A DNA stretch of 28,946 nucleotides from a virus. Lineage: Duplodnaviria > Heunggongvirae > Uroviricota > Caudoviricetes. Below are positions 125-28,008 of the stretch, piece after piece. The position numbers and the translations under genes are program-made. The stretch is taken from IMG/VR virus record IMGVR_UViG_2617270968_000004. One strand, 5' to 3'. The notes under the pieces are model-generated. The model worked only from the letters and a program-made list of their open reading frames with translations. It had not been told where the DNA came from and ran no database searches. Position 1 is the stretch's first letter; each line of letters starts with the position of its first letter.

Positions 125-795
125 TTCGCTGATTATCAAAGGTCTTCACCTCGTTAGGTCAGTTAATTCACGTCGCAAACACATTCAAACTGCTTCCCTT
201 CGCCATGTAATGGGCTTTCCCCATCGCGGACTACTACGGAAGCTCCGCCAGCCAGCGCGTCATCGGAGCCATGCCCCCTTAACATCCGTCGCTGACCTTC
301 CCCGGTTTACCTGCCTGGACTCAGGCATACTGAGGAGGCTGCCCGTCGCACTCTTTATCCTTGCTTGCCGCAAGTTGGCAGAAGTCAGCAACGCAAGCGT
401 GATAGACGCTGCTGCCCCGGTGTTTCGCATACATGTCAAAACACCTTCGACCGGCAGTGCTTACGTATCACTGCCAGTTCCTCCTGCACGGCCTGTCAGA
501 TCACGTAGGCCGTGGTGACGTTTTCAACCCACAGAGGCGGATTAACGGGTTCATGTTCTTCAGCCTTTCAGTACTTAACCTTGAGGATCATCTTGGCTTA
601 GTGATCTCGCCTCAATCCCCGTTGTCAGCGGGTTACATCACCCTGCGGGCATGCCGCAGGTCACTGCCGCTCAGGTTCTCCACCGTCACACCCGGTGGGA
701 TTGTTGGGTTTCTCATCGTGAGTTACCGGTTCAATATTCCAGACAGACTCGCGGTTCATTTAAGCATCCATGCCCGCCCTGAACTCCGGGCACAC
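1..795 (-). mobile_element. Group II intron, 5' portion (ribozyme domains plus start of the intron-encoded protein); continues beyond window start
   Basis: On the minus strand the IS629 orfB frame breaks after the FTY codons at 796 and the inserted sequence begins GTGTGCCCGGAG (GUGYG group II 5' consensus). About 670 nt further an ORF starts (ATG at 124..122, minus) reading MQRKLATWAVTDPSLRIQRLLRLITQPEWLAEAARITLSSKG, typical of the N-terminal region of bacterial group II intron reverse transcriptase/maturases. Confidence 0.6.
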
Positions 796-1213
796 CGTAA
801 GTAAAATCAGCCACCCACAGCTGGTCAGGTCGTTCTGCCACGAACTGACGGTTTACGCGGTCGCCTGCGGCAACGGCTTTCCGGCTGATGGTCGTACGGA
901 CCTTTTTACCCCGGAGAACACCGGCAAGTCCCATAACCGCCATGAGACGTGCCACAGTGCATCTGGCCACTCTGATACCTTCCCGTAACAACTGACGCCA
1001 GACTTTACGCACACCGTATACCTTGTGATTTTCATCGTATACGCGCTGTATCTCTTTCTTCAGCCAGTCATCGCGCTGCGCACGGGCACTGCGTTTATCC
1101 GGATGATGTCGCTGTTGCTGACAGTGGTAATACGTTGACGGGGCAATATGCAGTTCGCTGCATAGCGGTCCGACCCCGTACAGCTTACGCAGCTTATCCA
1201 GCAGTGGCATCAT
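796..1213 (-). pseudogene. IS3-family transposase OrfB, N-terminal part truncated by intron insertion
   Basis: [32 protein letters not shown]...WVADFTY matches IS629 OrfB up to FTY, then diverges into intron sequence (track ORF 731..1213). Confidence 0.75.
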
Positions 1214-1536
1214 TTTTTCCAGAGGCGGTCGAACTCCGCCTTCGCAAAATAAGCGGAAGCCTGGCGAAGGATATCGTTACTGCGGCGCAGTTCACGATTT
1301 TCACGTTCCAGCTCTTTCAGACGCTGACGTTCAGCGGTGGTGAGCCCTCCATCACCGCCCCCGGTATCCCGCTCATGCTGGCGAACCCAGACACGCAGAG
1401 TCTCCGGCGTACAGCCAATCTTTGGAGCAATGGAACAAATTGTCGCCCATTGTGAGTCATATTCGCTCTGACTTTCCAGAACCATACGGACTGCCCGTTG
1501 ACGGACTTCGGGGGAAAAACGAGTATTTTTAGTCAT
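1210..1536 (-). CDS. IS3-family transposase OrfA (IS629-type)
   Basis: 108-aa [25 protein letters not shown]... with helix-turn-helix and leucine-zipper-like C-terminus, characteristic of IS629/IS1203 OrfA. Confidence 0.85.
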
Positions 1537-3747: not shown

Positions 3748-4271
3748 CGGTCAATGGGGCCATCGACTGGCTGAACCGCGCTTCTTATTTTTTCACACTT
3801 GATCCATCGCCAGACAATATGCGGCGCGTTGGTCGTGGCCGCCGTCGCCGTGGTGTTTGTTATTGCATGGCACTACCCGATGTTAAAGAACGTGAAGTCA
3901 GAGACGGCGTTCTGTGCTTCCGTCGTGTGGCTGAACGTGGCATGGAGCCAAAAAATACGAATTCTCCCGAGTGGTGGGCGTGGCGCTGGTCCGCACATTT
4001 CGGACTTTGCGAAGATGAGAATGAAATTGCCAGCGGCAATAGTGCATATGGCGCTCTGAACCTGGCTTTCCATATCGGATTCAAACATGTCGCCCTGGTG
4101 GGCGTTGACGCTACACAAGAACCACGCGTTCACTCCGGCGGCACGCCAAAAAATCTAAGTCACCTGCCTTTGTTATTCCAGTCTGCGCGTGAACAGATTG
4201 ACGTTGTTTCATGCGGGAGAATGGGAGGTATTCCGCAGATGACTCTTAAAGAATGGCTGAAGAATACATGA
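3645..4271 (+). CDS. Hypothetical protein with GxGPS Rossmann-like motif (paralog 2)
   Basis: [25 protein letters not shown]...IIAVNGA; AGGAG upstream; stop overlaps the next start (ATGA). Confidence 0.55.
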
Positions 4272-4945
4272 TGGCACCCACAATTTATCACCGTATCGAC
4301 GGTACCAAATACAGGAATGTCTGGGTTGTTGGTGATCTGCATGGTTGCTACACCAGACTGATGTCCGAACTCCATCGTGTGGATTTTGACCCGGCGCAGG
4401 ATTTACTGATATCGGTCGGCGACCTTATCGATCGCGGTACTGAAAATGTCGAATGTCTGGAACTATTGCAGATGCCCTGGTTCAGAGCGGTCATGGGTAA
4501 CCATGAGCGGCTGATGATTGATGCGTTAAGTCCAGATGGCAACGTGAATAACTGGCTAATGAATGGCGGACAATGGTTCTTCATGCTGGACACTGAGCAG
4601 GAAATATTAGCCTGGGCGCTGGTGGAGTTGGTAAGACGACTGCCCTATATCATTGAGTTGAACACCGGGCAAGAAACTATCGTTATAGCCCATGCCGACT
4701 ATCCGGATAATGAATACCAATTCGGTAAGGAGGTGCCGCTTTTCAACGTTGTCTGGGCGCGCGAGCGTATCAGTGATTCGATGGATGATATTGGTGGCGA
4801 AATTTCGGGCGCAGATCGTTTTATCTTTGGTCACACTCCGGTGAAAAGCCCGAAGACATTCTGGAATCAGCAGTATATCGACACTGGTGCCGTATTTTGC
4901 GGAAACCTGACATTGATGAAAGTGAAAGGTGATGGTGCAGCATGA
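4253..4945 (+). CDS. Lambda-type serine/threonine protein phosphatase (calcineurin-like metallophosphoesterase)
   Basis: [16 protein letters not shown] and GNHE motifs; alternative start ATG at 4268 overlaps the upstream stop. Confidence 0.8.
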
Positions 4946-5643
4946 AGATTGCTTTAGTTTTTCGCTCTGGTGGTGACTATAACGCTTCCGATGTGCAGTG
5001 GCTGGTTAATCAACTGCCAAAAGGCTATGAAATTATTTGCCTGACAGACCTGAAGCGTTTACATGTACCTGGCGTCAAAGTTGTCCCATTGATCAACCAG
5101 TGGCAAAAGTGCCGTGGCTGGTGGGCGAAAATAGAGTTGTTCCGACCGGATATAACAGATGATCTGTTCTATCTGGATTTGGACACAGTTATTGCCGGTG
5201 ATATACGCCCAATCCTTGAGAATCCACCAACCAGCTTCACCATGCTTAGGGATTTTTACCATCCACAATATCGTGGTAGCGGTGCCCTGTGGATACCAAA
5301 TAGTGTAAAAGCGCATATCTGGAGTGCATTCTGGCAAGATCCGGAAGGTTGGGTTGCTCGTTGTGTTACTACTGAATGCTGGGGTGAGCAGGGGTTTTTG
5401 CGGAAGGTTATGGGTGATGATACACCAGCATTTCAGGATCTGTATCCGGGATGGTTTGTAAGTTACAAGGCCGATGTTGTGGAACCTGGTTCGAAATATG
5501 CGAGCGCGCGTTACTCCAGGGGGAATGGGGCATTACCAAAAGACTGCCGAATAATCTTTTTCCACGGCAAACCGCGACCTCGCGAAGTGTCAGAGGATTG
5601 GCTTCCCCTTATCAGCTCGTTTTTTGAGCGAGAATCAGAATAA
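4942..5643 (+). CDS. Putative glycosyltransferase-like protein (DxD motif)
   Basis: 233 aa with YLDLDTVI (DxD-like) in an N-terminal Rossmann-like region; ATGA overlap with the phosphatase stop. Confidence 0.4.
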
Positions 5644-5644
5644 T

Positions 5645-5661
5645 ATTGCTCTAATAATTCC
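5645..5661 (+). promoter_or_regulatory. C1 operator (ATTGCTCTAATAATTCC)
   Basis: 14/17 match to the C1 operator consensus, with the first 13 bp exact. Confidence 0.55.
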
Positions 5662-5670
5662 ATATTTTTA

Positions 5671-5699
5671 AAACGTGATGTACACTTATCACGTTTTTT
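5671..5699 (+). terminator. Rho-independent terminator
   Basis: 9-bp stem AAACGTGAT/ATCACGTTT with 8-nt loop followed by a T-run, directly after the glycosyltransferase-like gene. Confidence 0.6.
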
Positions 5700-5710
5700 A
5701 TTAGAGCAAT
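5694..5710 (-). promoter_or_regulatory. C1 operator (minus orientation)
   Basis: Reverse complement reads ATTGCTCTAATAAAAAA. Confidence 0.5.
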
Positions 5711-5724
5711 CTACAGGGTGCACT

Positions 5725-5943
5725 ATGTGGCCATTCCGACGGAAATATCACTACTGGCTGATCGCCTTTGTTACGCCGACCGGCGGTATCAGGCATGTCA
5801 TCACCAGGTATCGCAACAAGAGACTCACCTTAGCCAGAATTTTACAGGCTGCCATAGGTGAGGGACTGGATACAAATTGCGTAGTCCTTCCTCCTTCATA
5901 CTTAGGAAAAATGACCGAAGCACAAGCTAATACGGAACTTTGA
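5725..5943 (+). CDS. Hypothetical small protein
   Basis: 72-aa ORF ending 1 bp before the next gene; no recognisable motif, weak RBS. Confidence 0.3.
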   Translation: MWPFRRKYHYWLIAFVTPTGGIRHVITRYRNKRLTLARILQAAIGEGLDTNCVVLPPSYLGKMTEAQANTEL

Positions 5944-5944
5944 A

Positions 5945-7207
5945 ATGAGCACTTCAGCACAAAACCAATCAATCGAAAATGTATCTATCCCTGATGTCCT
6001 GAATGCCGGTATCCCGGCCATTATCCAGAACATCCGGGCCGCGCAACGCCGCGTTAGTTGTGATGACCTCACAGCACGTTTTTTTGATAATGCGGTTCAG
6101 TCAGCGGAGATGCTTCACGCACAGCTTATTGATGTTTATAACGCAGAAGCTGATAGCCATAACTCCCTGGTAGATGCAGCTGAAAATATGCAGTTGGATC
6201 TCGGTCTGAAGGGTAAAGAAATTGAAGAGCTTCAGCTGCAAATTGAACATTTGAAACGCCAGCAACAGGACGCGATCGACGATGCGACGCATGACGCCAA
6301 CCAGCGTGCTGATAATGCCGAACGTATAAGCATTGAGCTGGAAACAAAACTCAATGAAGTGACCGCGATGGTTGAACTGCGGAACTCACAGATTTCAACG
6401 CTAAAATCTCAATATAAAGAGATCATGAAACTTGATCCTTTTAACCTTGAGAAACGCTATAACAAAGCCAAAAGTGAGCGACAGGAACTGCGTAAGCAGG
6501 TCGCCGACCTTAACCAACAGCTCAAAAAGACTATTAAAGATGCAAGTGAGGCGCGCGTGGCATTTGCTAATAAAAAAGCAGAGGTTACCGCGCTGGTTAA
6601 TGAGAATGCCAAATTTGCGACGCTCAAGAAGGAAATGTATGGCATTACTGAGCGACGTTTCCCTGCAAGCAAACTTCATCCGACGTTAGGGCAAATCTCC
6701 TTCTTCCCGCGCCTCCTGGCTTATGGGATCTCATCGCCTAAAGAGTTCAATAACGAGCGTCCTTATATCGTTTCTAAGCTGGACTTTGCTTATCAGTTCT
6801 GCTGCGACATGGGCTATGCCATTGATATCCGAATCAACGAATGGTTGATGCCAAACTTCCAGCCGTTGGCCATTTTCCGCGAGTTCCAGCCGGAAGGTTG
6901 GGTAGAGTTCTTCCATGAATTGATCTGTAAAGAGATGGAAAGCCGCCGCCCGGAACTGGTCCGTCGAGTTGAGTGGGCGCAAGAGGTTATGTTGGCAGAG
7001 GCAGAGCTGCCGTTCGAACCGGAATTTATTGATGATCTGGCAGCTAAAGGGCTGCATACCCTGTTTGATGTGGTTACCCGCCGTCATGAGCAGTTGGTTG
7101 TCGAATTGGGTTTAGAGGAAACAGCGGCAAGAAGACTTCTCGATGTTTGCTATGCACGTAGCGATGCATGGGAAAAAGAGAACGGCGGCACTATTTACGT
7201 TCGCTGA
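5945..7207 (+). CDS. Hypothetical protein with long N-terminal coiled-coil region
   Basis: 420 aa; residues about 70-230 are heptad-rich (E/K/Q/L), C-terminal globular part unrecognised. Confidence 0.6.
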   Translation: MSTSAQNQSIENVSIPDVLNAGIPAIIQNIRAAQRRVSCDDLTARFFDNAVQSAEMLHAQLIDVYNAEADSHNSLVDAAENMQLDLGLKGKEIEELQLQIEHLKRQQQDAIDDATHDANQRADNAERISIELETKLNEVTAMVELRNSQISTLKSQYKEIMKLDPFNLEKRYNKAKSERQELRKQVADLNQQLKKTIKDASEARVAFANKKAEVTALVNENAKFATLKKEMYGITERRFPASKLHPTLGQISFFPRLLAYGISSPKEFNNERPYIVSKLDFAYQFCCDMGYAIDIRINEWLMPNFQPLAIFREFQPEGWVEFFHELICKEMESRRPELVRRVEWAQEVMLAEAELPFEPEFIDDLAAKGLHTLFDVVTRRHEQLVVELGLEETAARRLLDVCYARSDAWEKENGGTIYVR

Positions 7208-7279
7208 CAGTTACAGTGTCACTTTTGATGCTGGTGGAGTGCGCCCACCAGCATTTTTTTCGTCCAATGAGGAGGGCAT

Positions 7280-7786
7280 TTGAGTATTTTCAATAAACAC
7301 GCACACCAGGAACGTCCGTATATCGTCATAGTTGATATTGATGGAACAATATCAGAGGCAACTGAAGACAGACTGCATTTGCTTCCGCCACCAGGTAAAG
7401 GTGCATTAACAAAGGACTGGAACGAGTTTAATCTCGCCTGTGACACTGATACTCCCATAACTCCAGTTATTGATATTGTGCGCCAGTTATTTAACGTTTA
7501 CACGGTCTGGTTTGTAACCGGGCGCTGTGAGATCGCAAGGGATAAAACACGAGCCTGGCTGCGGAAGTACGTAACAAACGGGGCTGAGCCTTTGCTATCT
7601 ATGCGTCCTGCCACCGATGACAGAAATGACGGCCCAGCAAAGATTGATCTCCTTAAGAAAATTGGTCTAAGTAAAATCGCGTTCGCGCTGGAAGATAAGA
7701 TTGAAGTGGCGCGTGTTTTCAGGAGGCACGGCGTGCTTACGTTAATGGTCAGGGAGTATGAAAACGCGCTTCTCCATCAACAATAA
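7280..7786 (+). CDS. HAD-superfamily phosphatase-like protein (polynucleotide 3'-phosphatase-like; P1 pap-like by position)
   Basis: N-terminal DIDGT motif (HAD motif I) in a 168-aa protein. Confidence 0.55.
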   Translation: MSIFNKHAHQERPYIVIVDIDGTISEATEDRLHLLPPPGKGALTKDWNEFNLACDTDTPITPVIDIVRQLFNVYTVWFVTGRCEIARDKTRAWLRKYVTNGAEPLLSMRPATDDRNDGPAKIDLLKKIGLSKIAFALEDKIEVARVFRRHGVLTLMVREYENALLHQQ

Positions 7787-7802
7787 TTGCTCTAATAAAT
7801 AT
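7786..7802 (+). promoter_or_regulatory. C1 operator (ATTGCTCTAATAAATAT)
   Basis: 16/17 match to consensus, overlapping the pap-like stop codon. Confidence 0.6.
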
Positions 7803-7825
7803 TTATTTTTAAAGCAGAGAAAGTG

Positions 7826-7856
7826 AAAATAAAAACATGCCGCAAGGCGCGGCATG
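7826..7856 (-). terminator. Rho-independent terminator for minus-strand (hsdR) transcription
   Basis: 8-bp stem CATGCCGC/GCGGCATG with 5-nt loop; on the minus strand it is followed by a U-rich run (plus-strand A-run 7826..7835). Confidence 0.55.
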
Positions 7857-7884
7857 TATCCAATCAATCACAGGAGCTGAAAAT

Positions 7885-7971
7885 ATGAACACGGCATTCA
7901 AAATCATTATGGCCGCGATCTATTTCTGGCTGTTCTCTATCACTTTTGGCGATATCGTCGCACATGGGTAA
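7885..7971 (+). CDS. Small hydrophobic peptide (28 aa), candidate membrane peptide
   Basis: MNTAFKIIMAAIYFWLFSITFGDIVAHG with strong SD (CAGGAG, 8-nt spacing); lies within the 3' untranslated region of convergent hsdR. Confidence 0.3.
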   Translation: MNTAFKIIMAAIYFWLFSITFGDIVAHG

Positions 7972-8050
7972 GGGGAGTATATTAGCCATTTGGAACCCCA
8001 CGGTCTCTTGCGGGTTTAATTAAGAACCCGCAAGAAAAACACGAATTGGG

Positions 8051-11000
8051 CTATATTTTTCCGCCTACGCCTTTAAACTTCTCAATAAACGAGACGATTT
8101 TCTGGAAAACTGCCTGTTTTTTCGTTTTATATTGCGGATTTAACGGACTAAGTTTTGGTAATGTTTCGTTTAATTCTGTGCCATTTTCGGTGGCATATTC
8201 GCGTTTTAAAGACGTGCGAATATAGCGTTTTGCTGCATCTTCATTGAGATTTTCTTCTTTTATCAATGCTTCTGCTTCACGTTGCTGTTCGCGTTGAGCA
8301 AACGTAAAGAATGCGTCAATGATGCTGGCTTTGTCCGGTAAATCATCCAGGTTCGTTTGCTGAATAAAATCGACCACCAGGCCCTCTTTAGCACGGTTTC
8401 CCAGGCTTGAACGAATTAAGCGTTTGACCTCTTCGATCATTTCGCCCTTGCCTTTATTTTGTCTGTTGTGTTCGAAAATCAGTCCAAGGATATAATCCAG
8501 GTTTATTTCCTGAGACTTCAGCAAATCGACCTCAAAAACTACGTCATCCCAGTCAGTGGTTGATTTCTCTTTTTTCTCAGCTTCTTTCTCACGGCGCTGC
8601 CAGTCGCGAATATCGTTATAGGCAGAACGATAATCCTGAATCTTGCGATCAGCAGGGAGACGAATTGTTTGCAATTCAGCGAACTTTTCATCATCCACAT
8701 AATGTTCTGCTTTGAATTTTTCTACCGCAACAGGATCGCTAAGATCGATTTGTTGCAGGGCTTTTAGCGTGGCAAATTCATCATAGTTTTGCAGGATGTT
8801 CTCGGCACGCAGGTATTCGCCAAACAGTTTAACGAAGTCTTTCTTCTCTTTTTCACTTTCAATACTGGTAGGGTCAGGGAACCGTTGTTCCAGTTCTGAA
8901 ACTACTGTCATGAAGCCGCGTTTAGCTTCACCTGTAGCAGCATCAGTAAAGCCTTCCATATACTCTGTATAACTCTTTTCTAACACCACATTTTTGGTGT
9001 TTTTGTCACCAAACAGCGTTATGGCATCAATAGTTGAGCGTTCCAGATCCCGGAAAGTGACGATATTACCGAAGGTTTTAGTGGCGTCATAAATGCGGTT
9101 GGTGCGGGAAAATGCCTGCATCAGGCCGTGATAACGTAAGTTTTTATCGACGAATAGCGTGTTCAATGTTGGAGCATCGAAGCCGGTTAAGAACATCCCC
9201 ACGACAATTAGCAGATCGATATCCTGATTTTTAACCCGCTGGGCTAAATCACGATAGTAGTTCTGAAAACCGTTACTGTCGGTGCTAAAGTTAGTTTTAA
9301 AATGGCTGTTATATTCACGAATTGCAGCGTCCAGAAACTCTTTAGCACTGCTGTCCATTGCGCTGGTATCAAAAGTTTCATCGGAAATTTCACCAATGGC
9401 ATTTTGTTCTTCATTGGCGGCAAAGGAGAAGATTGTCGCAATACGCAGCGGTTTATAGGTAGCCGATTTATTAGCGGCTTCTTCTTGTAACCGTTTAAAC
9501 GTCGCATAATAGGCTTTCGCGGCATCCACGCTGCTCACTGCCAACATAGCATTAAAACCTTTTGAGCCAGGGAAGGTACGGTGGGTTTTCTGGCGGAAAT
9601 TATTCAGAATATATTGCGTGATTTCCTGAATACGCATGGGATGAAGAAACGCCTGCTGATTTTCAGCCGCACTCAGTTTTTTCTCGTCAGTTTCTGTCTC
9701 TAAAGACTTAAACTGTGGCCGCACATCGTTGTAGTCCACCTTGAATTTGAGCACTTTTTCGTCACGAATCGCATCGGTAATTACATACGAATGCAATTCA
9801 CGACCAAATACGCTGGCGGTTGTTTCTGAGCCTAAGGCGTTTTCCGGGAAAATAGGGGTGCCGGTAAAACCAAACTGATAATAGCGTTTGAATTTCTTCT
9901 TCAGGTTTTTCTGCGCTTCTCCAAACTGGCTGCGGTGGCATTCATCAAATATAAACACCACTTGCTGATTATATACAGGCAGATCGCTTTCTGCTTTCAT
10001 CAGGTTATTGAGTTTCTGAATAGTAGTGACGATAATTTTGTTATCGTCCTTATCCAGATTTCGTTTAAGGCCTGCGGTATTTTCCGAGCCGTTGACGCTG
10101 TCTGGCGAAAAACGCTGATATTCCTTCATGGTCTGGTAATCGAGGTCTTTCCTGTCGACCACAAAGAAGACTTTATCAATAAAGTCCAGCTCTGTTGCCA
10201 GACGCGCGGCTTTAAAGCTGGTGAGGGTTTTACCAGAACCGGTAGTGTGCCAGATATACCCACCGCTTTCCGGTTTTGACCAGTTCTTCGCTGTAAAGGA
10301 ACTCTTAATTTTCCACAGAATGCGCTCGGTGGCGGCAATCTGGTACGGTCGCATTACCAGTAGTGTCTGACTGCTGTCAAAAACGCTGTAGTTCACCAGA
10401 ACATTAAGCAGAGTATGTTTCTGGAAAAAGGTGGCGGTAAAGTCTTTGAGGTCTTTAATCAGCGTATTGTCTGATTTCGCCCAGTTCATGGTGAAGTCAA
10501 AACTGTTTTTATCGCGCTTTGTCGTGTTGGCAAAATAACGGGTATCAGTGCCGTTGGAAATGACGAACAGCTGCAGATACTTAAACAGGGAATTTTCGCT
10601 GTTAAAACTCTCTTTACTGTAACGATGTATCTGGTTGAAAGCCTCACGAATCGCCACGCCGCGTTTTTTCAGTTCGATTTGTACCAGCGGTAAGCCATTA
10701 ACCAGGATAGTTACGTCATAACGGTTAGCGTGAGAACCCGCCTGTTCAAACTGCTGGATAATCTGCACCTTATTGCGCATGAGATTCTTTTTATCTATCA
10801 AATAGATGTTCTCAAGACGCTCGTCATCAAAAATAAAGTCGCAAATATAGTCGATATGGATTTTACGGGTCTTATCCAGAATGCCATCGCTCGGGTTATC
10901 CAGATACTGCTCCGTGAAACGCCGCCACTCGCTGTCATTAAACACCACACCATTGAGGTTCTGAAGCTGTTCCCGAACATTGGCCAGCATCGCCGACTGT

Positions 11001-11167
11001 GATTTTACGGATATAAATTCATAGCCCTGATTCCGTAGGTCCTGTATCAGTTCGCGTTCCAGGTCCGATTCGCTCTGGTAGCTGTCGCCTGTTGGCTCAG
11101 CTTTGATGTACTTATCAAGAACGATAAAGTTATTGGATTCAGCAATGGTGTGTGTCTGATGAGTCAT
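8051..11167 (-). CDS. hsdR: Type I restriction enzyme R subunit (HsdR), type IC EcoR124-like
   Basis: 1038 aa; N-terminal PD-ExK nuclease motif ([17 protein letters not shown]), helicase motifs TGSGKT and DECH; size and N-terminus match the EcoR124 family as I recall it. Confidence 0.92.
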
Positions 11168-11288
11168 AGCGCATCCTTTGTGCCGTCTGGCAAGGGCCGG
11201 AAGGGGGGTAATGGTGACTTCCGGCGCGTAAAAAATAGTCTATATACTGACCGGGTGTTAAGGTGGTCCGATCGGTAGCAATGATCAA

Positions 11289-12503
11289 TTAATTACTGAC
11301 AGTTTCAGGTTTCGGGAAACTGAACAGTAAATCACGATAGTACTCGTATTGTTTCTGGCGCAACTCGATTTCACGCGGAAGACCTTCGGTGATGGAGTTA
11401 GTCAGTGTGTCGAATTTGTCGAGTATTTCGACAATTCGTTGTTGTTCATTGATGTTAGGAACCGGAATTTTAAATGAAAATAATTTTTTACTGTCAATAG
11501 AAGCTACGGACCCTCCTGTCTTTTTCGCTGCTCGCAGAATATCACTCCCCCTAGACCCAATCATATGATAAATATATTTAACCAAGATGTTTTCATGAGG
11601 AATGACTGCTTTCATATCTTGATTGAGCGTAGCAGGTACTTTTATTAATGCACTTGGTAATACTTTATCCAATATGCTTGAGCGAACAACGATTGCAATC
11701 GAGTTTGCTGGAATCAGTTTTGTTGACGATTGTAGAACAGCCTCCTCAGTTATATAGTCTTCCGAAGAGTCTACAAGTGTTCGGCCCATATCTTTCGGGG
11801 AAATCCATGGAATGCTTCCATTTTCCCAAAATTCAATTTTATTTTTTGATGGTGTCCCTCCCCCATACCATTTTCCGATCTCTCCCAAAGTCTTCCACTC
11901 AACCTCACCCTCTTTAAAACTCAACAACTGGTCGCGATAGTAGTTGTACTGTTTTTTACGCATGTTAAGCTCAGCGGTAAGCTCAGCGGTAAGTGCAGTA
12001 AATTTATCCAGAATCCGAACGATTTCAGACTGGATGGCAAGGGATTTTTCCGGATTATCCGGGCAGGGGATTGGGATTTTTTTTTGAGAATAATTACTAA
12101 TCCATTGGCGTTTATGGTCTCCCTCTGCGAATTCACTTGGTAATGTATTGAGCCAATAGTAAACATATTTCAGTAAGGTTTTATTATCATCACATGATGT
12201 AACCATTTTCATGGCCGATGATTTTGCCTTAAAGTCAAAATCCACCCATTTATTAGCGGTGGTGAAATCATCAAAAATTATTACAGGTGCCTTTGATGCC
12301 TGATAAATACCATGAGTCTCATTTGTGTATCCAAGAATAAATGTTTTTCCGGCAGTAAGAACCGGTATGGTATATGTGTCGTGATAATCTTTTGCTTTTA
12401 CCAAATACTTTGTTGGCTGTTCATATTTGGTTATTTCCCCCAATGGCAACCACTCAACTTCAACCCCATCCAGCAATTTTTCCAGATAACTCATCTCGCT
12501 CAT
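11289..12503 (-). CDS. hsdS: Type I restriction-modification specificity subunit (HsdS)
   Basis: 404 aa with two target-recognition domains separated by conserved regions ...[26 protein letters not shown] and ...[19 protein letters not shown]; 4-bp overlap with hsdM. Confidence 0.9.
11967..11990 (-). repeat. Tandem 12-bp repeat (2 copies) encoding TAEL-TAEL in the HsdS central conserved region
   Basis: Plus-strand AAGCTCAGCGGT x2; in type IC systems the copy number of this repeat sets the spacer length of the recognition site. Confidence 0.8.
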
Positions 12504-14062
12504 TTCTGCACCTCGCAGCCTTCAATTTCAGCCACAATCGCATCAATATCTTTGCGCAACTGGTCGATTTTGCTGACCGTGGTTTTCAGCTCAGCATTCA
12601 GCTCAGCAATATCGATAATTTCGCGGTTATCTTTCGCTTCCACATAGCTGCTCACCGACAGGTTATAGTCATTAGCAACAACGGTCTCAAACGCGACAGA
12701 TTTCGCCAGATGAGCAACATCTTCCTTGCTGGCAAATACCTGCATAATCTGTTCGATATGGGCATCGGTCAGGATATTGTTGTTAGTCTCTTTTTTGAAC
12801 AGTTCGCTGGCGTCAATAAACTGAACGTTGGTATCCGTTTTATGTTTGGACAGAACCAGAATGTTTACTGCAATGGTGGTGCCAAAGAACAGGTTCGGTG
12901 CCAGTGAAATTACGGTTTCGACATAGTTATTGTCAATCAGATACTGACGGATTTTCTGCTCCGCGCCGCCACGGTAAAAAATACCCGGGAAGCAAACAAT
13001 CGCAGCACGACCTTTGGCAGAAAGATAGTTCAGCGCATGTAATACAAACGCAAAGTCAGCTTTGGATTTGGGGGCCAGAACGCCAGCCGGGGCAAAACGT
13101 TCATCGTTAATCAGCGTCGGGTCATCGCTGCCAATCCATTTCACCGAATACGGCGGGTTAGAAACGATGGCATCAAACGGTTTTTCATCTCTGAAGTGTG
13201 GCTCAGTCAGTGTATTACCCAGCTTGATATCAAACTTGTCGTAGTTGATGTTGTGCAAAAACATGTTCATACGTGCCAGGTTATAGGTTGTATGGTTGAT
13301 TTCCTGACCAAAAAAGCCTTCTTCGATGATATGGTCATCAAACTGTTTTTTAGCCTGCAACAACAGCGAACCGGATCCTGCTGCCGGGTCGTAGATTTTG
13401 TTAACGTGGGTCTGCCCGTGCATAGCCAGTTGTGCAATCAGCTTAGAGACGTGTTGCGGTGTAAAGAACTCGCCGCCTGACTTACCGGCATTCGCCGCAT
13501 AGTTAGAAATCAGGAACTCATAGGCGTCACCGAACAGGTCAATCTGATGTTCGTTGAAGTCACCAAGTTTTAACCCTTCAACCCCTTTCAGAACCGCAGC
13601 CAGGCGGGCATTTTTATCTTTAACGGTGTTACCCAGGCGGTTACTGGTAGTATCGAAATCAGCAAACAAACCTTTGATGTCAGCTTCTGAAGGATAACCG
13701 TAAGCAGAACTTTCGATAGCAACGAAGATGCTGTTTAAATCTGCATTCAGTCTGTCATTAGTATTTGCTTTCGCAGCTACGTTGCAGAAAAGCTGACTGG
13801 GGTAGATGAAGTAGCCTTTAGTTTTGATGGCATCGTCTTTAATGTCATCAGTAATTACGCTGTCATCCAGTTTCGCATAACAGATACTGTCATCACCGGC
13901 TTCAATATAACTGGAAAAATTTTCGCTGATAAAACGGTAGAAAAGTGCGCCCAGAACGTATTGCTTAAAATCCCATCCATCGACCGAACCCCTGACATCG
14001 TTAGCAATTTGCCAGATTTGACGATGAAGCTCTGCACGTTGTTGAATACTTGTCATTTTCAT
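12500..14062 (-). CDS. hsdM: Type I restriction-modification N6-adenine DNA methyltransferase subunit (HsdM)
   Basis: 520 aa; AdoMet-binding [10 protein letters not shown] and catalytic NPPY motifs. Confidence 0.92.
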
Positions 14063-14201
14063 CCACTTATTTCAGGCTTATGTAATTGGATGTGATTCTA
14101 CAGCAACTTGGATGCTTTAGCAGTTCGGACATTAGGCTACGAATGACCTGCCTAGAGGTTTGTTAAGCCGCAAAGTGCTGGTGCTTTATGCCTGTGAAGT
14201 T

Positions 14202-14230
14202 TATAATTGTGTACACATAACGAGTACATG
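14202..14230 (+). promoter_or_regulatory. phd-doc promoter/operator (-10 TATAAT followed by GTAC-centred palindromes)
   Basis: TATAAT at 14202..14207, perfect palindrome TGTGTACACA at 14208..14217 and a second GTAC-centred site at 14222..14229, immediately upstream of phd. Confidence 0.5.
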
Positions 14231-14238
14231 AGGTATTT

Positions 14239-14460
14239 ATGCAATCCATTAACTTCCGTACCGCGCGCGGCAACCTTTCTGAAGTGCTCAACAATGTTGA
14301 GGCCGGGGAAGAGGTTGAAATCACCCGCAGAGGCCGTGAGCCAGCAGTAATTGTCAGCAAGGCTACTTTCGAAGCCTACAAAAAAGCGGCGCTGGATGCT
14401 GAATTTGCATCCCTGTTTGACACCCTGGACTCCACCAACAAGGAACTGGTTAACCGATAA
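14239..14460 (+). CDS. phd: Phd antitoxin (prevent host death; Phd/YefM family)
   Basis: 73-aa [39 protein letters not shown]..., P1 Phd length and sequence as I recall it; stop overlaps the doc start. Confidence 0.92.
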
Positions 14461-14840
14461 TGAGGCATATATCACCGGAAGAACTTATTGCGCTTCATGA
14501 TGCGAATATAAACCGCTACGGCGGCTTGCCGGGAATGTCAGATCCGGGTAGGGCAGAGGCCATTATCGGGAGAGTTCAGGCCAGAGTTGCCTACGAAGAG
14601 ATCACCGACCTTTTCGAAGTCTCCGCCACCTACCTGGTGGCTACAGCGAGAGGGCATATATTCAATGATGCCAATAAGCGTACCGCGCTAAACAGCGCGC
14701 TGCTATTTCTACGCCGTAACGGGGTGCAGGTATTTGATTCACCTGAACTGGCAGACCTTACTGTAGGCGCTGCGACTGGCGAGATATCTGTATCTTCTGT
14801 CGCCGACACGTTACGTAGATTGTATGGTTCTGCGGAGTAG
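14460..14840 (+). CDS. doc: Doc toxin (death on curing; Fic-fold kinase)
   Basis: 126 aa, Fic-like motif region [11 protein letters not shown]; translationally coupled to phd. Confidence 0.92.
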
Positions 14841-14844
14841 ATTA

Positions 14845-15024
14845 ATGGCACGCAAATACAACAAATTGTCCCGTGAAGCGTTAAAGATGCTTCTTGATGG
14901 CGTGAGTCGCCGCGAGGTAAAGCAATACCTGGTTGGTAAGCAAATTGGAGCCAGGACCGCTATTGCTGTGTTATGCCGTCAGGAAATGGTTGTGCTTAAA
15001 CAGAGAATGCCGGGCAGCAGATAA
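14845..15024 (+). CDS. Hypothetical small protein downstream of doc (pdcA-like position)
   Basis: 59-aa ORF from ATG 14845 with GGAG 8 nt upstream. Confidence 0.4.
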   Translation: MARKYNKLSREALKMLLDGVSRREVKQYLVGKQIGARTAIAVLCRQEMVVLKQRMPGSR

Positions 15025-15051
15025 AGCCCAATCAGTGATGAAAGGTGTGAT

Positions 15052-16095
15052 GTGAAAGCCGTAATTACTCCCTTTGTACAAAAAGAGCTTGGCGTCGCCA
15101 CATTCAAAGTGGATCAGGAAGTCAGAAAGCTGGTGGAGGCTGGCCGTAAATTTATTATGGAGCCGGTGCCGCGTGAGTTAATCGAGCACATGGACGACGG
15201 CCTCGTTGTTTCCGAGCAAACTATGGCAACAAATGAGGCGTTGCAGCCGTTTTTTAACAGCGATGAACTGTTTCGCAGTATTGGTGGAATTGACGCGCTG
15301 GTGGCGTGGTTGCGCAGGAAAGAGGGGCAATGCCAGGCCGCAGATCGTAGCTGGTGTGACAACCATATTGTCCACGCAGAACGAGACAATAGCGCGGTGT
15401 TGTTGTGCTGGCATCACGATAACCATTACCGGATGCGTGGTTTTAATGAGCTGAAAGAAACGCTGCATAATAATCGCGTTAACTGGATACTGGATGTCGC
15501 CCGTCAGGAAATGGGGCTTTCAGATGGCCATGATTTAAGTATTCAGGAACTGTGCTGGTGGGCTTTCATGCGCAACATGATGCACCTGATGCCGGAAGAA
15601 GTTTGCCGTATATCAATAAATAAGATGAAAGCCGCAACGCAGGATAGCGGACCTCTGAAAGAGGCGGATATTCGCCCGTATGACGATCGCGCTACAGCAT
15701 ATGTTCAGATGATGGAAGAACGCGCCGCGCCGATGCGTGCAAAAGTATGCCCTGTGGATGTTGACTCCGACCCTGGCATGGCGCATTTCAAAATACCAAA
15801 ACTGCAATCGCTAAAATTACCTGAGTACATGGACTTTGTTGCTTCCCGTCCATGCTGTGGGTGTGGAGCGGCGGGAGCTGGCGCTCACATTACGCCTTAT
15901 ATCGTTCGTCATAGTCGATTATACGCGCATGACATTTACGCAATTCCTCTGTGCCAGTCATGCCAGCGTGATATTGAGCGTGACCGCGATAATTGGGAGA
16001 AGACGCACGGTAGGCTGGCGATGCATCAACGATTGTTCTTTGATTACGCGCTTGGAGTCGGCGCTATCACAAGTCACTCGTCGAGCGTTAGATAA
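15052..16095 (+). CDS. Hypothetical protein with Cys/His-rich C-terminal region (pdcB-like position; possible degenerate HNH-like motif)
   Basis: 347 aa; C-terminus RPCCGCG...[10 protein letters not shown]...[10 protein letters not shown] resembles a zinc-binding HNH-like arrangement. Confidence 0.5.
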
Positions 16096-16096
16096 A

Positions 16097-16113
16097 ATTG
16101 CTCTAATGTATTG
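16097..16113 (+). promoter_or_regulatory. C1 operator overlapping a sigma70-like promoter
   Basis: ATTGCTCTAATGTATTG (14/17); -35 TTGCCA 16111..16116 and -10 TATTAT 16133..16138 with 16-bp spacing; 7-bp inverted repeat TGATTAG/CTAATCA at 16149..16171 in the leader. Confidence 0.55.
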
Positions 16114-16183
16114 CCATTTCTTTAATCGAGGGTATTATATTTCACGTTGATTAGTTGACATGGGCTAATCAGTAGGTGACAGG

Positions 16184-16766
16184 ATGTTACTTAACTGGCA
16201 GGGACGCCACTTCATGGAAATAAATCACTCACGAATAACATCGTACGAGATTGCGGATTACATGATCCGCACTAAATCTCTTCTATCAGCGAAAGAACTC
16301 GCAGCAATTCTTGAAAAGGAATACCCGCATCTGGATGTCGATAAGCGCGATGTTTATCTGCGCTTACGAACGAAAGCGTGAAAATAACTGGTCAGTGCTG
16401 GAAGCAGCTGAATTCATCGAGGCGCATGGCGGAAAAGTGCCGCCCCTGATGCTGGAGCAAATCAAAGCCGATCTGCGTGCTCCTAAGACCAATACCGATG
16501 ATGAGGAAAGGCAAACAGCCGTCGGTGGCCCTTCTCTTGAAGATCTGGACAAAGTTGCGCGAGAACGGGCCGCCAACCGCCGCGCCGATGCCGCATTGTG
16601 GATTGAGCAGCGTAGGGAAGAAATCGCCGATATCGTTGATACAGGCGGTTATGGAGATGTTGATACTGAAGGTGTATCAAACGACCCATGGCTGGAACAA
16701 GACCTGGACGAAGACGAGGAGGAAGACGAAGAAGTTACCCGCAAGCTATACGGGGATGATGATTAA
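16184..16766 (+). pseudogene. Candidate late gene (small-terminase or late-activator position) split across two frames
   Basis: ORF 16184..16381 (frame 2) and ORF 16311..16766 (frame 3, TTG-started in the track, acidic C-terminus [11 protein letters not shown]). A single +1 shift near 16375 would join them into about 190 aa; the stop overlaps the pacB start (TAATG). Confidence 0.3.
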
Positions 16767-18250
16767 TGGCCAGAAGTTGCGTAACGGATCCACGTTGGCG
16801 CGAGCTGGTGGCGCTATATCGTTATGACTGGATTGCTGCCGCTGATGTTTTGTTCGGCAAAACACCTACCTGGCAGCAGGATCTGATTATTGAGTCTGTG
16901 CAGGAACAGGGTAGCAAGACATCTGTTTCGTCTGGTCACGGTACCGGGAAATCAGACATGACTTCTATCATGATCATGTTGTTCATAATCATGTATCCCG
17001 GTGCCCGCGCCATTATCGTTGCGAACAAAATTCAGCAGGTAATGACCGGTATATTCAAGTACATCAAGATAAACTGGGCTACTGCCACCAGCCGTTTTCC
17101 ATGGCTTGCTGATTATTTTGTTCTGACAGAAACCGCTTTCTATGAGGTTACTGGTAAAGGTGTATGGACTGTAGTACCGAAGGGCTTTCGTCTGGGAAGT
17201 GAAGAAGCTCTCGCCGGTGAACACGCAGATCATCTTCTGTATATTATCGATGAAGCCTCCGGTGTCAGTGATAGAGCTTTCGGTATCATCACCGGTGCTC
17301 TTACCGGACAGGATAACCGCATCTTATTGCTGTCACAGCCTACACGCCCAAGCGGCTATTTCTACGATACACACCATAAACTGGCCAAGCGTCCTGGTAA
17401 CCCTGATGGCGTTTATACGGCGATCACGCTTAACAGTGAGGAATCACCGTTGGTAACGCCAGCATTTATCAAAATGAAGCTGGCGGAGTACGGCGGGCGT
17501 GATAACCCTATGTACATGATTAAGGTACGCGGCCTATTCCCTAAATCACAGGATGGCTTCCTTCTTGGACGTGATGAGGTTGAACGTGCAACGCGGCGGA
17601 AAGTCAAGATTGCCAAAGGATGGGGCTGGCTTGCATGTGTGGACGTTGCTGGTGGTACGGGACGGGATAAGTCCGTTATCAATATCATGATGGTGTCCGG
17701 CCAGCGAAATAAACGCCGTGTAATCAACTATCGAATGCTGGAATACACAGACGTTACAGAAACGCAGCTTGCCGCCAAAATTTTCGCAGAATGTAATCCT
17801 GAGCGATTCCCAAATATCACCATAGCGATAGACGGCGATGGCCTGGGTAAAGCAACGGCGGATCTGATGTACGAGTATTATGGTATTACCGTACAGCGTA
17901 TACGCTGGGGTAAAAAGATGCATAGCCGTGAAGATAAGAGCCTGTACTTTGATAAACGTGCTTATGCCAACGTTCAAGCCGCAGAGGCCGTAAAATCTGG
18001 TCGTATGAGACTGGATAAGGGTAATGAAACTATTGAGGAAGCGTCGAAAATCCCTGTAGGGATTAACTCCGCAGGTCAATGGAAGGTGATGAGTAAGGAG
18101 GATATGAAGAAAAAACTCAACCTGCACTCACCAGACCATTGGGATACATATTGTTTCGCTATGCTGGCGGATTATGTTCCCCAGGATGAAGTGCTTAGCG
18201 TCGAAGACGAAGCGCAGGTTGATGAAGCTCTGGCATGGCTTAATGAATGA
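16766..18250 (+). CDS. pacB: Terminase large subunit PacB
   Basis: 494 aa (the P1 PacB length as I recall it); Walker A-like GHGTGKS near the N-terminus; translational coupling to the upstream ORF. Confidence 0.8.
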
Positions 18251-19958: not shown

Positions 19959-20810
19959 TTATTGCGCGCTTTCGGGGTTGTCGTTTACTGGCTGCCCCTT
20001 CTTGGTTTTACGGCTGCGCGTAACTGATGCGGCTGACTTAACCTTTTTCTCTTCGCGAGTGATGGCAATTTGTTTTTTTACATTTTCAATATCTGCCAGG
20101 CGATATATTTTTGCTTGCGGCCAGCGGTCGCAGATGATCGGTTCTATGGAGTCATAAAGGCTAAATTTTGCTTTTTCGAATTCACCGTTGATGATAATTC
20201 CATCACGGAGAGTTTCATCGCAGATAAACACGCCACACAGTGGCACATGGTAACTAACTGATTTACCATCATTGTAGTTAGGGCTACTGGAAATGTAGTG
20301 GACGCGCAGCATTGTTTCGCTAAAGCCGTGTACGCGCATACGGAATTTTTCATCCTCCGGGTACTGCTTCATTAGCTCTTTTGTTGCTTCCAGGTTCTCT
20401 ATGTATTTCGCACTGTGCTCATTGATCCCCGCGCTTTTTTGGATGCGAATGTCCTTATCAATCAGATGAATAATGCGGCCAGCGGTCATGTTGACGCTGT
20501 TCACAGCTTCTGTCTGATAAGTTGTAACCTTACGCACACCGCGAAGGATGTTAGGCACTGGATATAAAATAGTCTTTGGGATATTGAGGTCTGGGTACTG
20601 TTCCAGTTCCCGCGCCATTAAAGTCCATTTATCAATTTCAGCCTGAATGCTGTCAGTTTCTTTGAACGGTAGAACGACAACCGGGCGTACAGGACGACCG
20701 TCGCTGGCTGTATCAACGTGTTGGGCGCGTGCAACAGCTTTTTTTAGAAAGAGATCCCTGAAGCTGACGAACTCCTGGTACAGTTGTTCGCCGTAGACAT
20801 AATTTATCAT
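19959..20810 (-). CDS. c1: C1 repressor of lysis (P1-type primary repressor)
   Basis: 283 aa, the P1 C1 length as I recall it; its cognate operators are scattered through the window and coi lies immediately upstream. Confidence 0.8.
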   Translation of the reverse strand: MINYVYGEQLYQEFVSFRDLFLKKAVARAQHVDTASDGRPVRPVVVLPFKETDSIQAEIDKWTLMARELEQYPDLNIPKTILYPVPNILRGVRKVTTYQTEAVNSVNMTAGRIIHLIDKDIRIQKSAGINEHSAKYIENLEATKELMKQYPEDEKFRMRVHGFSETMLRVHYISSSPNYNDGKSVSYHVPLCGVFICDETLRDGIIINGEFEKAKFSLYDSIEPIICDRWPQAKIYRLADIENVKKQIAITREEKKVKSAASVTRSRKTKKGQPVNDNPESAQ

Positions 20811-25051: not shown

Positions 25052-25741
25052 TCATAAATCTGATAGCCACTTACTATCTATGGACTCAATCTCCGTCAGC
25101 GGAATTGATGGGAAAAAATATCCCTGAGCGCCCCATAGTCCTATCCCTTTTGATAACTTATGACAATCAATGTTTTCGACGCCTTCAGCGATGATATTCG
25201 GACATAACTTTTTTAAATTGCTAATAATGACATCAAAATGAGGCTTAATCATATGCTCTTGAAAAAATGACTTATCAAGTTTTATTGCATGATATTTATT
25301 TTTAATTAATGCTTTCATGGTGGCGTTACCACTTCCAAAATCATCAAGCCAAACATTATCTGTCAAAGTCAGTAGAAAGGATATGATGTAATCCTCATCG
25401 CTTAAATCAGGATAGTTTTCTGATATTTCAATCGCTATAAATTTATTGTTTATTAGTAGTTCTTGAATTTGTTTATTGCCATATATATATAAACAGGTAT
25501 CATAATCTACATTGATAGAGCATAATATATTATGGCGTTCAAAAAAATACTTATATTTGATTATTGTGTTAAGTTGAGATTTTAGCAAGTTAATCTTCAT
25601 CTTGCTTGTAAACATACCCAATACTTTCTGAGTAGAAAGAATAGCCCCCTCGTTGGAATAAAATCTGCTCAACACTTCCACTGCTATCAACTTGTTAGTG
25701 CTTGTGGAAATGATTGGTTCTACTATGTAGATAACTTCCAT
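25052..25741 (-). CDS. EAL-domain protein (putative c-di-GMP phosphodiesterase), stand-alone
   Basis: 229 aa with EAL-domain signatures EVL (E retained), DDFGSG, KLDKSF, AEGVEN and QGYFF; SD GAGGG upstream; visibly AT-rich gene. Confidence 0.7.
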   Translation of the reverse strand: MEVIYIVEPIISTSTNKLIAVEVLSRFYSNEGAILSTQKVLGMFTSKMKINLLKSQLNTIIKYKYFFERHNILCSINVDYDTCLYIYGNKQIQELLINNKFIAIEISENYPDLSDEDYIISFLLTLTDNVWLDDFGSGNATMKALIKNKYHAIKLDKSFFQEHMIKPHFDVIISNLKKLCPNIIAEGVENIDCHKLSKGIGLWGAQGYFFPSIPLTEIESIDSKWLSDL

Positions 25742-25964
25742 GCTCCCACCCTCTATTTTTAAATTGGTTGGCTTTAGCAGATAAAGTGCCCTTTATATTT
25801 ACAGGGGTTACACACTATGTCAATTTATTTATCTGTAGTGAAATTGATAAAAATTCAATAATAAAAAAACAGCAACTGTGACACAAATCAATATTTTTAT
25901 TTTTTGCACAACTTCTTGATTTCAGTGCTGCTGTATCTCTATTCTTGTTCAAAGCCTCTTTAGA

Positions 25965-26699
25965 ATGGTGGTAGCTATGTCAGGAGTCTGTTACTTCATC
26001 CTAATAAAAAAACCGATAATTTTTCAATTTCTTAAGGATTTCTTAATATTAAATTATGGTGATGTGCTGTTGCTTAAACATTCTGAACGCGAATTCTTAC
26101 AAACCTATTCAGATAAATATATCGAATTCGAACTTAATGATAGTGCTGTAAGAAACTATTTATCTTGTCACAATCACCAAGGGAAGCAACTTCTGGATAA
26201 ATGCCCACATTTGCTAAAAAAGTCTTTTGCTTATCCTGATTTATTAATCAGGATGATCGATAATATAAGTGACCAGAATCATATACATCCTGATTTTAAG
26301 GATGCTTTAACTTTTTCATTACTTTCAATTTTTAGTGATGTTGACAACCTTAGAGCTTTTCTTACGTCTGGCATGCCTACTTTCTCAGGGAAAGTACGCA
26401 GCATATTTCTTTCAGATGTATCTAAACATTGGAAACTAAGAGATTTAACTGATTATCTATACATGAGTGAGAGTTTAATAAAGAAAAAACTATTATTAGA
26501 AAACACCTCCTTCAGTAAGTTATTACTTGATACACGGATGGCTTTTGCTATTAAATTACTAAAGCAAAACCGCCCCCTCAAACAAGTATCAGAAAGTTGT
26601 GGTTTTAGTAGTATATCGTACTTTGTGTACCTATTTAGGCAGTATTATAATTGTACACCATGTGAATATGCAAAACATCAGTTATCATCTGGGAAATAA
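25965..26699 (+). CDS. AraC/XylS-family transcriptional regulator
   Basis: 244 aa; C-terminal helix-turn-helix region ...LKQVSESCGFSSISYFVYLFRQYYNCTPCEY; AT-rich, divergent from the EAL gene. Confidence 0.7.
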   Translation: MVVAMSGVCYFILIKKPIIFQFLKDFLILNYGDVLLLKHSEREFLQTYSDKYIEFELNDSAVRNYLSCHNHQGKQLLDKCPHLLKKSFAYPDLLIRMIDNISDQNHIHPDFKDALTFSLLSIFSDVDNLRAFLTSGMPTFSGKVRSIFLSDVSKHWKLRDLTDYLYMSESLIKKKLLLENTSFSKLLLDTRMAFAIKLLKQNRPLKQVSESCGFSSISYFVYLFRQYYNCTPCEYAKHQLSSGK

Positions 26700-27674: not shown

Positions 27675-28008
27675 TGAAGTGGCACACTGAATTTGGCCAC
27701 CTGAACAGAGGTGATATGCTCACCTCAGAACAACACAGGTGCTCCAATGAAAAAAAGAAATTTTAGCGCAGAGTTTAAACGCGAATCCGCTCAACTGGTT
27801 GTTGACCAGAAATACACGGTGGCAGATGCCGCCAAAGCTATGGATGTTGGCCTTTCCACAATGACAAGATGGGTCAAACAACTGCGTGATGAGCGTCAGG
27901 GAAAAACACAAAAAGCCTCTCCGATAACACCAGAACAAATCGAAATACGTAAGCTGAGGAAAAAGCTACAACGCATTGAAATGGAGAATGAAATATTAAA
28001 AAAGGCTA
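27675..28008 (+). mobile_element. IS911 (IS3 family) left end, interrupted by IS30
   Basis: Terminus TGAAGTGGCACACTGAATTTGGCCACC from 27675; orfA follows and is cut after ...ENEILKKAT. Confidence 0.8.
27747..28008 (+). pseudogene. insN: IS911 OrfA (InsN-like), truncated by IS30 insertion
   Basis: [52 protein letters not shown]... then diverges into IS30 end sequence. Confidence 0.8.

Follow-up and report, generated by a model that had tools for sequence, protein, structure and literature searches.

The IMG/VR record IMGVR_UViG_2617270968_000004, assigned to the Caudoviricetes, is a stretch of 28,946 nucleotides, which we refer to at its full length as the window. It carries a block of hsd genes corresponding to the textbook type I restriction-modification (R-M) system EcoR124I, intact and almost letter-perfect, in the backbone of a P1-like phage-plasmid. 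All three genes lie on the minus strand: hsdM (12500..14062) encodes an N6-adenine methyltransferase subunit of 520 amino acids (aa), hsdS (11289..12503) a 404 aa specificity subunit of the EcoR124I allele, and hsdR (8051..11167) a 1038 aa subunit that combines ATP-dependent translocase and endonuclease. These assignments draw on the open reading frames (ORFs), on Pfam models and on matches to chains in the Protein Data Bank (PDB), and for hsdM and hsdR on NCBIfam models as well. A preliminary description of this DNA had listed the genes as intact and co-oriented, at these same lengths, and the ORFs bear this out, each closing with one terminal stop and none broken by a frameshift or internal stop across 6 kb. 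The same description called the genes an operon. That term suits hsdM and hsdS, which overlap by 4 bp (ATGA), but is loose for hsdR, which follows hsdS behind a 121-bp gap containing a promoter-like site.

The Pfam and NCBIfam models for the three proteins all scored far above their curated cut-offs. HsdR contains HSDR_N, SWI2_SNF2 and T1R_D3-like domains together with the family-specific EcoR124_C domain (E = 1.9e-71), and it matched TIGR00348 at 775 bits, above the cut-off for that model. HsdM combines HsdM_N with N6_Mtase and matched TIGR00497 at 648 bits, and HsdS contains Methylase_S in two stretches. Comparison with solved structures pointed to a single enzyme. HsdR matched the EcoR124I chain 2w00_A over its full length, with one substitution, C247F, within the ~968 residues compared; HsdS was identical to chain 7bst_A at 403 of 404 positions, H258Q being the sole difference; and HsdM was identical to chain 7bst_D at 518 of 520 positions, with N243D and V376I as the exceptions. 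With all three subunits present and matched to EcoR124I in this way, the earlier proposal of a complete, EcoR124-like type IC system is upheld.

The motifs required of such an enzyme were also in place. HsdR retains its nuclease motifs of the PD-(D/E)xK and QxxxY types (D151, E165 and K167, with QIHRY at 179) and its Walker A and DEAD-like helicase motifs (GSGKT at 310 and DECH at 408), and HsdM retains its S-adenosylmethionine and NPPY motifs (DPAAGSG at 225 and NPPY at 302). HsdR C247F, HsdS H258Q and HsdM N243D and V376I all fall outside the catalytic motifs that we checked; the HsdS substitution is located in the second target recognition domain (TRD2).

Membership of a type I R-M family is decided by cross-hybridisation, complementation and similarity of sequence. 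HsdR and HsdM show the high identity to family members that characterizes type IC, as seen in the matches to the EcoR124 chains, and HsdS has the type IC layout, in which two variable TRDs surround a conserved central region with TAEL repeats. EcoR124I, the type IC prototype from plasmid R124 (PDB 2w00, 7bst), has subunits of equal lengths (1038, 404 and 520 aa), and the likeness extends to the gene order hsdM-hsdS-hsdR, the M/S overlap, the gap before hsdR and the presence of two TAEL repeats in HsdS. The difference lies in the context. In the window, hsdR adjoins a full P1-like left flank (pmgS, pap and the operator Op88), whereas R124-type and F-plasmid copies of hsd keep only 84 bp of that flank and have the insertion sequence (IS) element IS1 at their bounds.

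Boundaries, prior record and distribution of the hsd block

The hsd block as a whole (7976..14162) comprises 6,187 bp without a P1 counterpart, as delimited by BLAST against P1, by the junction sequences and by the P1 annotation, and it stands in place of the 3,487-bp pmgT-humD segment of P1. Alignment to P1, which the preliminary description had suggested as a way to locate the insertion boundaries, placed the left breakpoint at 7975/7976, where 97.7% identity to canonical P1 (NC_005856) ends at P1 84482, 6 bp before the pmgT start codon. At the right breakpoint (14162/14163), 97.6% identity resumes at P1 87970, at the humD stop codon. Identity to P1 is 97.6-97.7% over window positions 4000-7975 and 14163-16366. 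The GC content of the hsd block is ~40-46%, with its minimum over hsdS, compared to ~46-50% in the flanks. Canonical P1 does not itself have hsd at this position but carries pmgT-humD instead. The earlier remark that hot, lxc and humD of P1 are missing is right in substance, since hsd replaces the pmgT-humD segment, although "lxc" should read lxr. Similarly, describing the system as cargo inside a P1-like backbone agrees with its position in place of pmgT-humD, but the block is better called one allele of a known replaceable region.

Both end-points were already on record. According to the GenBank annotation of P1, DNA on the downstream side of the EcoDXXI hsd locus matches P1 84263-84482 at 96% identity, the R124/3 DNA that comes after hsdR matches P1 84399-84482 at 98%, and conjugative-plasmid DNA located upstream of the EcoDXXI hsd locus matches P1 87969-88647, also at 98%. 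The end-points of these annotated matches coincide with the breakpoints that we measured. The type IC loci EcoDXXI, EcoR124/3 and EcoprrI have P1 flanks as in the window, with breakpoints at P1 84482 next to hsdR and at P1 87969 towards hsdM/phd. The P1 GenBank notes place those loci on conjugative plasmids or other E. coli DNA, whereas the flanks in the window belong to a syntenic P1-like backbone that extends for more than 20 kb. A 1997 article by Tyndall et al. in Mol Microbiol (23:729) reportedly found type IC hsd loci to be flanked by P1 DNA. A 2025 EcoSal Plus review cites Tyndall et al. 1997 for the linkage between R-M systems and mobile elements (PMC12707154). A 2022 survey of 77 P1-like phage-plasmids found pmgT-humD to be one of eight highly variable regions (region 8) and res-mod to be another (PMC9603915). 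Moreover, R-M systems are prominent among the genes swapped between phage-plasmids and plasmids, and may spread selfishly (Pfeifer et al., 2024, PMC10879196).

To count the two states of the interval, we searched PLSDB with probes of 1,001 bp centred on each junction, for which coverage of at least 80% requires a match to span the junction and excludes copies without pap. Matches numbered 250 plasmid records for the pap-to-hsdR junction, against 172 for the pap-to-pmgT junction of P1 itself. Both figures come from records that were not dereplicated, and they reflect how clinical and farm E. coli have been sampled. By these junction-spanning matches, sequenced plasmids carry the hsd state no less commonly than the state of canonical P1. 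Coverage of window positions 7000-15000 reached at least 80% in 225 plasmids of PLSDB and in 200 complete E. coli genomes out of 5,426, and the phages vB_EcoM-673R5 (ON470615) and phi456 (OR339795) carry hsd at the same locus.

EcoR124I at this P1-like locus is an already known and ordinary arrangement. A novel insertion into P1 was considered and rejected, given that the breakpoints are already annotated in P1 and that the junction occurs in 250 plasmids. The unusualness implied by the preliminary description is not supported, given these same observations and the publication of the link in 1997. The locus therefore has little discovery value, as it holds the best-studied type IC enzyme, in an association with P1 DNA that has been in the literature since 1997 and is found in hundreds of deposited plasmids. 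What the PLSDB counts do illustrate is that the typical state of the pap-phd interval is not the one found in canonical P1, the hsd junction outnumbering P1's own.

The P1-like relatives (673R5, phi456 and the ~250 PLSDB plasmids) share both the pap-hsdR and the hsdM-phd junctions with the window, and their hsdR, hsdM and flanks are 96-98% identical to it at the nucleotide level; they differ in having hsdS genes with other TRDs and often three TAEL repeats. Two of them depart further from the window. In phi456 (locus L003, 9460-10727), two extra ORFs of 327 and 97 aa lie between hsdS and hsdM, one of them annotated as "putative baseplate hub protein". This recalls the prr locus, with its extra gene inside a type IC hsd cluster. 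In 673R5 (locus L001, 5141-11092), the annotation breaks hsdR into HsdR1, a hypothetical protein and HsdR2 and divides hsdM into two pieces, unlike the intact genes of the window, which suggests frameshifts or sequencing errors in the 673R5 deposit.

Predicted specificity and mechanism

In hsdS of the window, two exact copies of the 12-bp unit ACCGCTGAGCTT stand in tandem (11967..11990, minus strand) and encode TAEL-TAEL at HsdS residues 172-179. This unit occurs twice in EcoR124I, which recognises GAA N6 RTCG, and three times in EcoR124II, which recognises GAA N7 RTCG, and the number of units changes via unequal crossing-over (Loenen et al., 2013, PMC3874165). Because HsdS has two TAEL repeats, the predicted target of the window system is GAA(N6)RTCG. 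The two repeats would set the spacer at 6 bp, and a third repeat, gained through unequal crossing-over, would shift the target to N7. For purposes of annotation, the element can be labelled with EcoR124I specificity and this predicted target, a label that matters for transformation and phage work with the host strain.

We aligned HsdS of the window with that of 673R5, phi456 and pLR-62-2_1 and found the central and C-terminal regions to be invariant and the TRDs unrelated, with two TAEL repeats in the window and three in both 673R5 and phi456. In most relatives, hsdR and hsdM matched at 96-98% and homology broke within hsdS. On the strength of these alignments, the specificity gene hsdS is the mobile part of the locus, shuffled between P1-like elements and F plasmids. 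Exact EcoR124I-type hsdS DNA (100% over 1,453 bp) was present in only 2 of the 72,556 plasmids in PLSDB. One is an IncF plasmid, in which hsdRSM, phd, doc and pdcA lie on an IS1-bounded segment equivalent to window 7892 to ~15329, and the other has the same IS1-bounded layout. At the protein level, exact HsdS was recorded from 108 contigs and exact HsdR from 23, and the exact HsdM, with its two substitutions, was not found in a collection of 15 billion proteins. The contexts of exact HsdS include P1-like ones (L006, L009 and L013-L015) as well as IS1-bounded plasmid or chromosomal ones (L007, L008 and L010-L012).

In this latter set of IS1-bounded contexts, a SMODS-domain gene and an S-4TM effector gene, resembling a cyclic oligonucleotide-based antiphage signaling system (CBASS), lie just past the hsdR-side IS1 (~15500-17500 in locus coordinates). 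Along with phd-doc and ccdAB, they make up a small defence/addiction cluster in the F-plasmid and chromosomal contexts of the hsd allele.

EcoR124I has a two-promoter arrangement, in which hsdR is transcribed from its own promoter. In the window, hsdM and hsdS would be transcribed from a candidate promoter in the region upstream of hsdM (14063..14162, minus strand), which lies inside the hsd block. This candidate is an extended -10-like sequence, TGcTGTAGAAT, ~45 bp before the hsdM ATG; it was picked out by eye and was not called by the promoter scan. Transcription of hsdR would begin in the 121-bp gap between hsdS and hsdR (11168..11288, minus strand), where a consensus match marks a candidate separate promoter at 11261..11232 (TTAACA, 18 nt, TATTTT).

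By analogy with the characterized enzyme, one HsdS and two HsdM would form an M2S methyltransferase that recognises GAA(N6)RTCG and N6-methylates one adenine per strand. Addition of HsdR would yield the R2M2S endonuclease, which would bind unmethylated sites, pull DNA in an ATP-driven manner and cut at distant, non-specific positions. Endonuclease assembly passes via R1M2S, according to the EcoSal Plus review (PMC12707154). We infer activity of the window system in vivo from the same analogy. Its role would be to protect both the host and the element from incoming unmodified DNA, beside phd-doc as an element-stabilising module.

Alternative readings of the locus

We consider it highly probable that the window system is type IC EcoR124I, or an allele of it with the four observed residue differences over the three subunits, in the known replaceable interval between pap/Op88 and phd-doc. 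Several observations weigh against this reading. There are the four substitutions relative to the solved enzyme, and the residue-level count for HsdR against 2w00_A covers ~968 of its 1038 residues, up to the last ~70. A promoter scan of 7700-14300 gave 9 promoter-like sites, compared to 12.0 in shuffled sequence, and the promoter assignments are weak for this reason. GAA(N6)RTCG sites occur in the window at the level of chance (8 versus 7.6 expected), leaving no footprint of restriction pressure, and avoidance of EcoR124I sites was thus dismissed as a signal. The four substitutions and the weak promoter evidence would suit a system whose genes are intact yet silent or inactive, whether through an inactivating substitution, a lack of transcription or restriction alleviation, so that the element would perform modification only or nothing at all. 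The absence of the exact HsdM from the protein collection and the decay of the surrounding element, with its lpa-pacA deletion and flanking IS elements (see below), lean the same way. Nevertheless, every catalytic motif checked in HsdR and HsdM is intact, the hsd genes run without stops or frameshifts over 6 kb, and the recurrence of exact HsdR and HsdS on 23 and 108 contigs argues for maintained alleles. We regard a silent or inactive system as very unlikely.

A different question is which state of the interval came first. It is possible, though we do not favor it, that the P1-like lineage had hsd in this interval as its older or default state, and that pmgT-humD of canonical P1 is the replacement. 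The greater frequency of the pap-hsdR junction in PLSDB is in line with this, within the sampling limits given for those counts. P1 has also retained, immediately ahead of pmgT, the 84 bp located downstream of hsdR in R124/3, and it keeps an identical terminator-like hairpin in the hsdR sense at a place where it has no leftward gene, but that hairpin may serve another role in P1. The lower GC content of the hsd block is compatible with either direction of replacement. It is also conceivable, if rather doubtful, that hsd beside phd-doc is selected mainly because it stabilises the element, the two forming a linked cassette for maintenance and exclusion that is transferred as one piece, and not for phage defence as such. 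Indeed, hsdRSM travels with phd-doc-pdcA on a segment of ~7.4 kb (window 7892 to ~15216-15329), seen IS-bounded on F-type plasmids and on a chromosome, and R-M systems count among the most frequent exchanges between phage-plasmids and plasmids, with selfish spread a possibility (Pfeifer et al., 2024, PMC10879196). However, linkage between hsd and phd-doc does not demonstrate function, addiction is already provided by phd-doc, and roles in stability and in phage defence are not mutually exclusive. Type I systems are, moreover, generally poor at post-segregational killing, as restriction is alleviated once modification lapses, and this counts against a stability cassette. Our preferred reading remains a complete EcoR124I system occupying a replaceable interval of a P1-like element.

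Flanking genes and decay of the P1-like backbone

The position of the locus, between a pap-like gene with a C1 operator (7280-7786 and 7786-7802) and phd-doc (14239-14840), is as first described. The pap-like gene (7280..7786, plus strand) encodes a 168 aa protein with a HAD_PNKP domain and aligns to P1 pap within DNA of 97.7% identity. The C1 operator (7786..7802, plus strand; ATTGCTCTAATAAATAT) has 1 mismatch to the consensus and is equivalent to OpmgT/Op88 of P1 (P1 84293-84309); C1 operator-like sites number 10 in the window, where 0.2 would be expected by chance. On the other side of the hsd block, phd (14239..14460, plus strand) contains PhdYeFM_antitox and doc (14460..14840, plus strand), which abuts phd at 14460, contains Fic/DOC; both matched their NCBIfam models (TIGR01552 and TIGR01550, respectively) above cut-off. 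The phd-doc pair and hsdM are divergently transcribed.

In P1, the PpmgT promoters overlap OpmgT/Op88 and, under repression by C1, drive pmgT rightward. In the window, PpmgT/Op88 (7786 to ~7830) instead faces the 3' end of hsdR and is convergent with it. Derepression of the prophage might then send PpmgT transcripts antisense across hsdR and reduce restriction, coupling it to the lysis-lysogeny switch, but we view this idea as highly speculative and most improbable. The geometry is not new, because the same operator follows the EcoDXXI hsd locus, Op88 being placed downstream of that locus in the P1 annotation.

Downstream of hsdR, the final 84 bp of homology to P1 (7892..7975) are also kept by the IS1-bounded hsd modules on F-type plasmids, and the homology of F-plasmid and chromosomal hsd copies to the window starts at 7892. 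Farther out, ~200 bp past the hsdR stop and within the P1-homologous spacer, a 10-bp GC-rich stem followed by a T-run forms a hairpin (7857..7835, minus strand) that is terminator-like for leftward, hsdR-sense transcription. An identical hairpin is found in canonical P1 (NC_005856, ~84342-84364), where no leftward gene exists and where it may have been left over from an ancestor with hsd.

The P1-like nature of the backbone, recognized in the preliminary description, is confirmed by 97-98% identity to P1 on both sides of hsd. The conserved gene order is pmgS, pap ... phd, doc, pdcA, pdcB, lpa', pacA', pacB, ant, c1, cre, ref, mat. An ORF of the size of c1 at 19959-20810 aligns to P1 c1, and its equivalent in close relatives is annotated, or matched by Pfam, as repressor C1. 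Canonical P1 (NC_005856) is 97.6% identical across pmgS-pap and phd-doc-pdcA-pdcB and has the same C1 operators. It differs in that its lpa, pac and pacA are intact and that it carries the type III EcoP1I res/mod genes after mat. That the window has other genes in the res-mod position had been correctly noted: these are an EAL-domain gene (25052-25741, minus strand), found in the same place in pLR-62-2_1, and a gene for an AraC-family regulator (25965-26699, plus strand). The segment that contains them (25052-26699) has a GC content of ~32%.

Relative to P1, 673R5 and pLR-62-2_1, ~1.13 kb (about 1,134 bp of P1) is missing from the window at 16366/16367. This deletion, whose junction lies within window 16184-16766, removes the LPpac promoter and the pac cleavage site along with two-thirds of lpa from its 3' end and ~260 codons of 5' pacA, and it leaves an Lpa of 65 aa that matches profile positions 1-49 of 131. 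The 16366/16367 junction recurs in L009 and L013, and a similar junction is found in the complete 96-kb plasmid NZ_CP061751.1, whose annotation lists lpa and pacA there as truncated pseudogenes. An assembly artefact was rejected on these grounds, as L009 and L013 are independent assemblies and the complete plasmid has similar pseudogenes. Because lpa is truncated and LPpac, the pac site and 5' pacA are gone, neither late-gene activation nor DNA packaging is to be expected of the element. It is probably a defective P1-like plasmid or remnant and no longer a working phage, a reading that fits the conversions described by Pfeifer et al. (2024, PMC10879196).

The pacA remnant and pacB (16351-18248) are 83% identical to P1, compared to 99.7% for vB_EcoM-673R5 and 98.9% for pLR-62-2_1. 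Going by these identities, this stretch is a divergent packaging-gene allele in otherwise 97-98% P1-like DNA.

L009 is JAAPEI010000004.1, a contig of 320 kb whose alignment to the window extends over 21,215 bp at 99.81% identity, with 40 mismatches and no gaps. In view of those mismatches, identity of the two was rejected, and JAAPEI010000004.1 is a close relative instead. Because this relative lies on a 320-kb contig, the P1-like segment of the window may survive as a remnant within some larger replicon. IS elements near 1590 and 27675 mark the limits of the P1-like DNA, and the P1-type replicon and partition genes (repA and parAB) fall outside the window. On the left, it is bounded by fragments of IS3-family orfA and orfB (731-1536, minus strand) in DNA of 55% GC, and on the right by an IS3-like HTH_Tnp_1 gene (27711-28115). 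Farther right, positions 28539-28635 contain a 94-97 bp match to DNA in or beside the copies of IS1 that are annotated in F-type plasmid and chromosomal contexts (L004 and L007).

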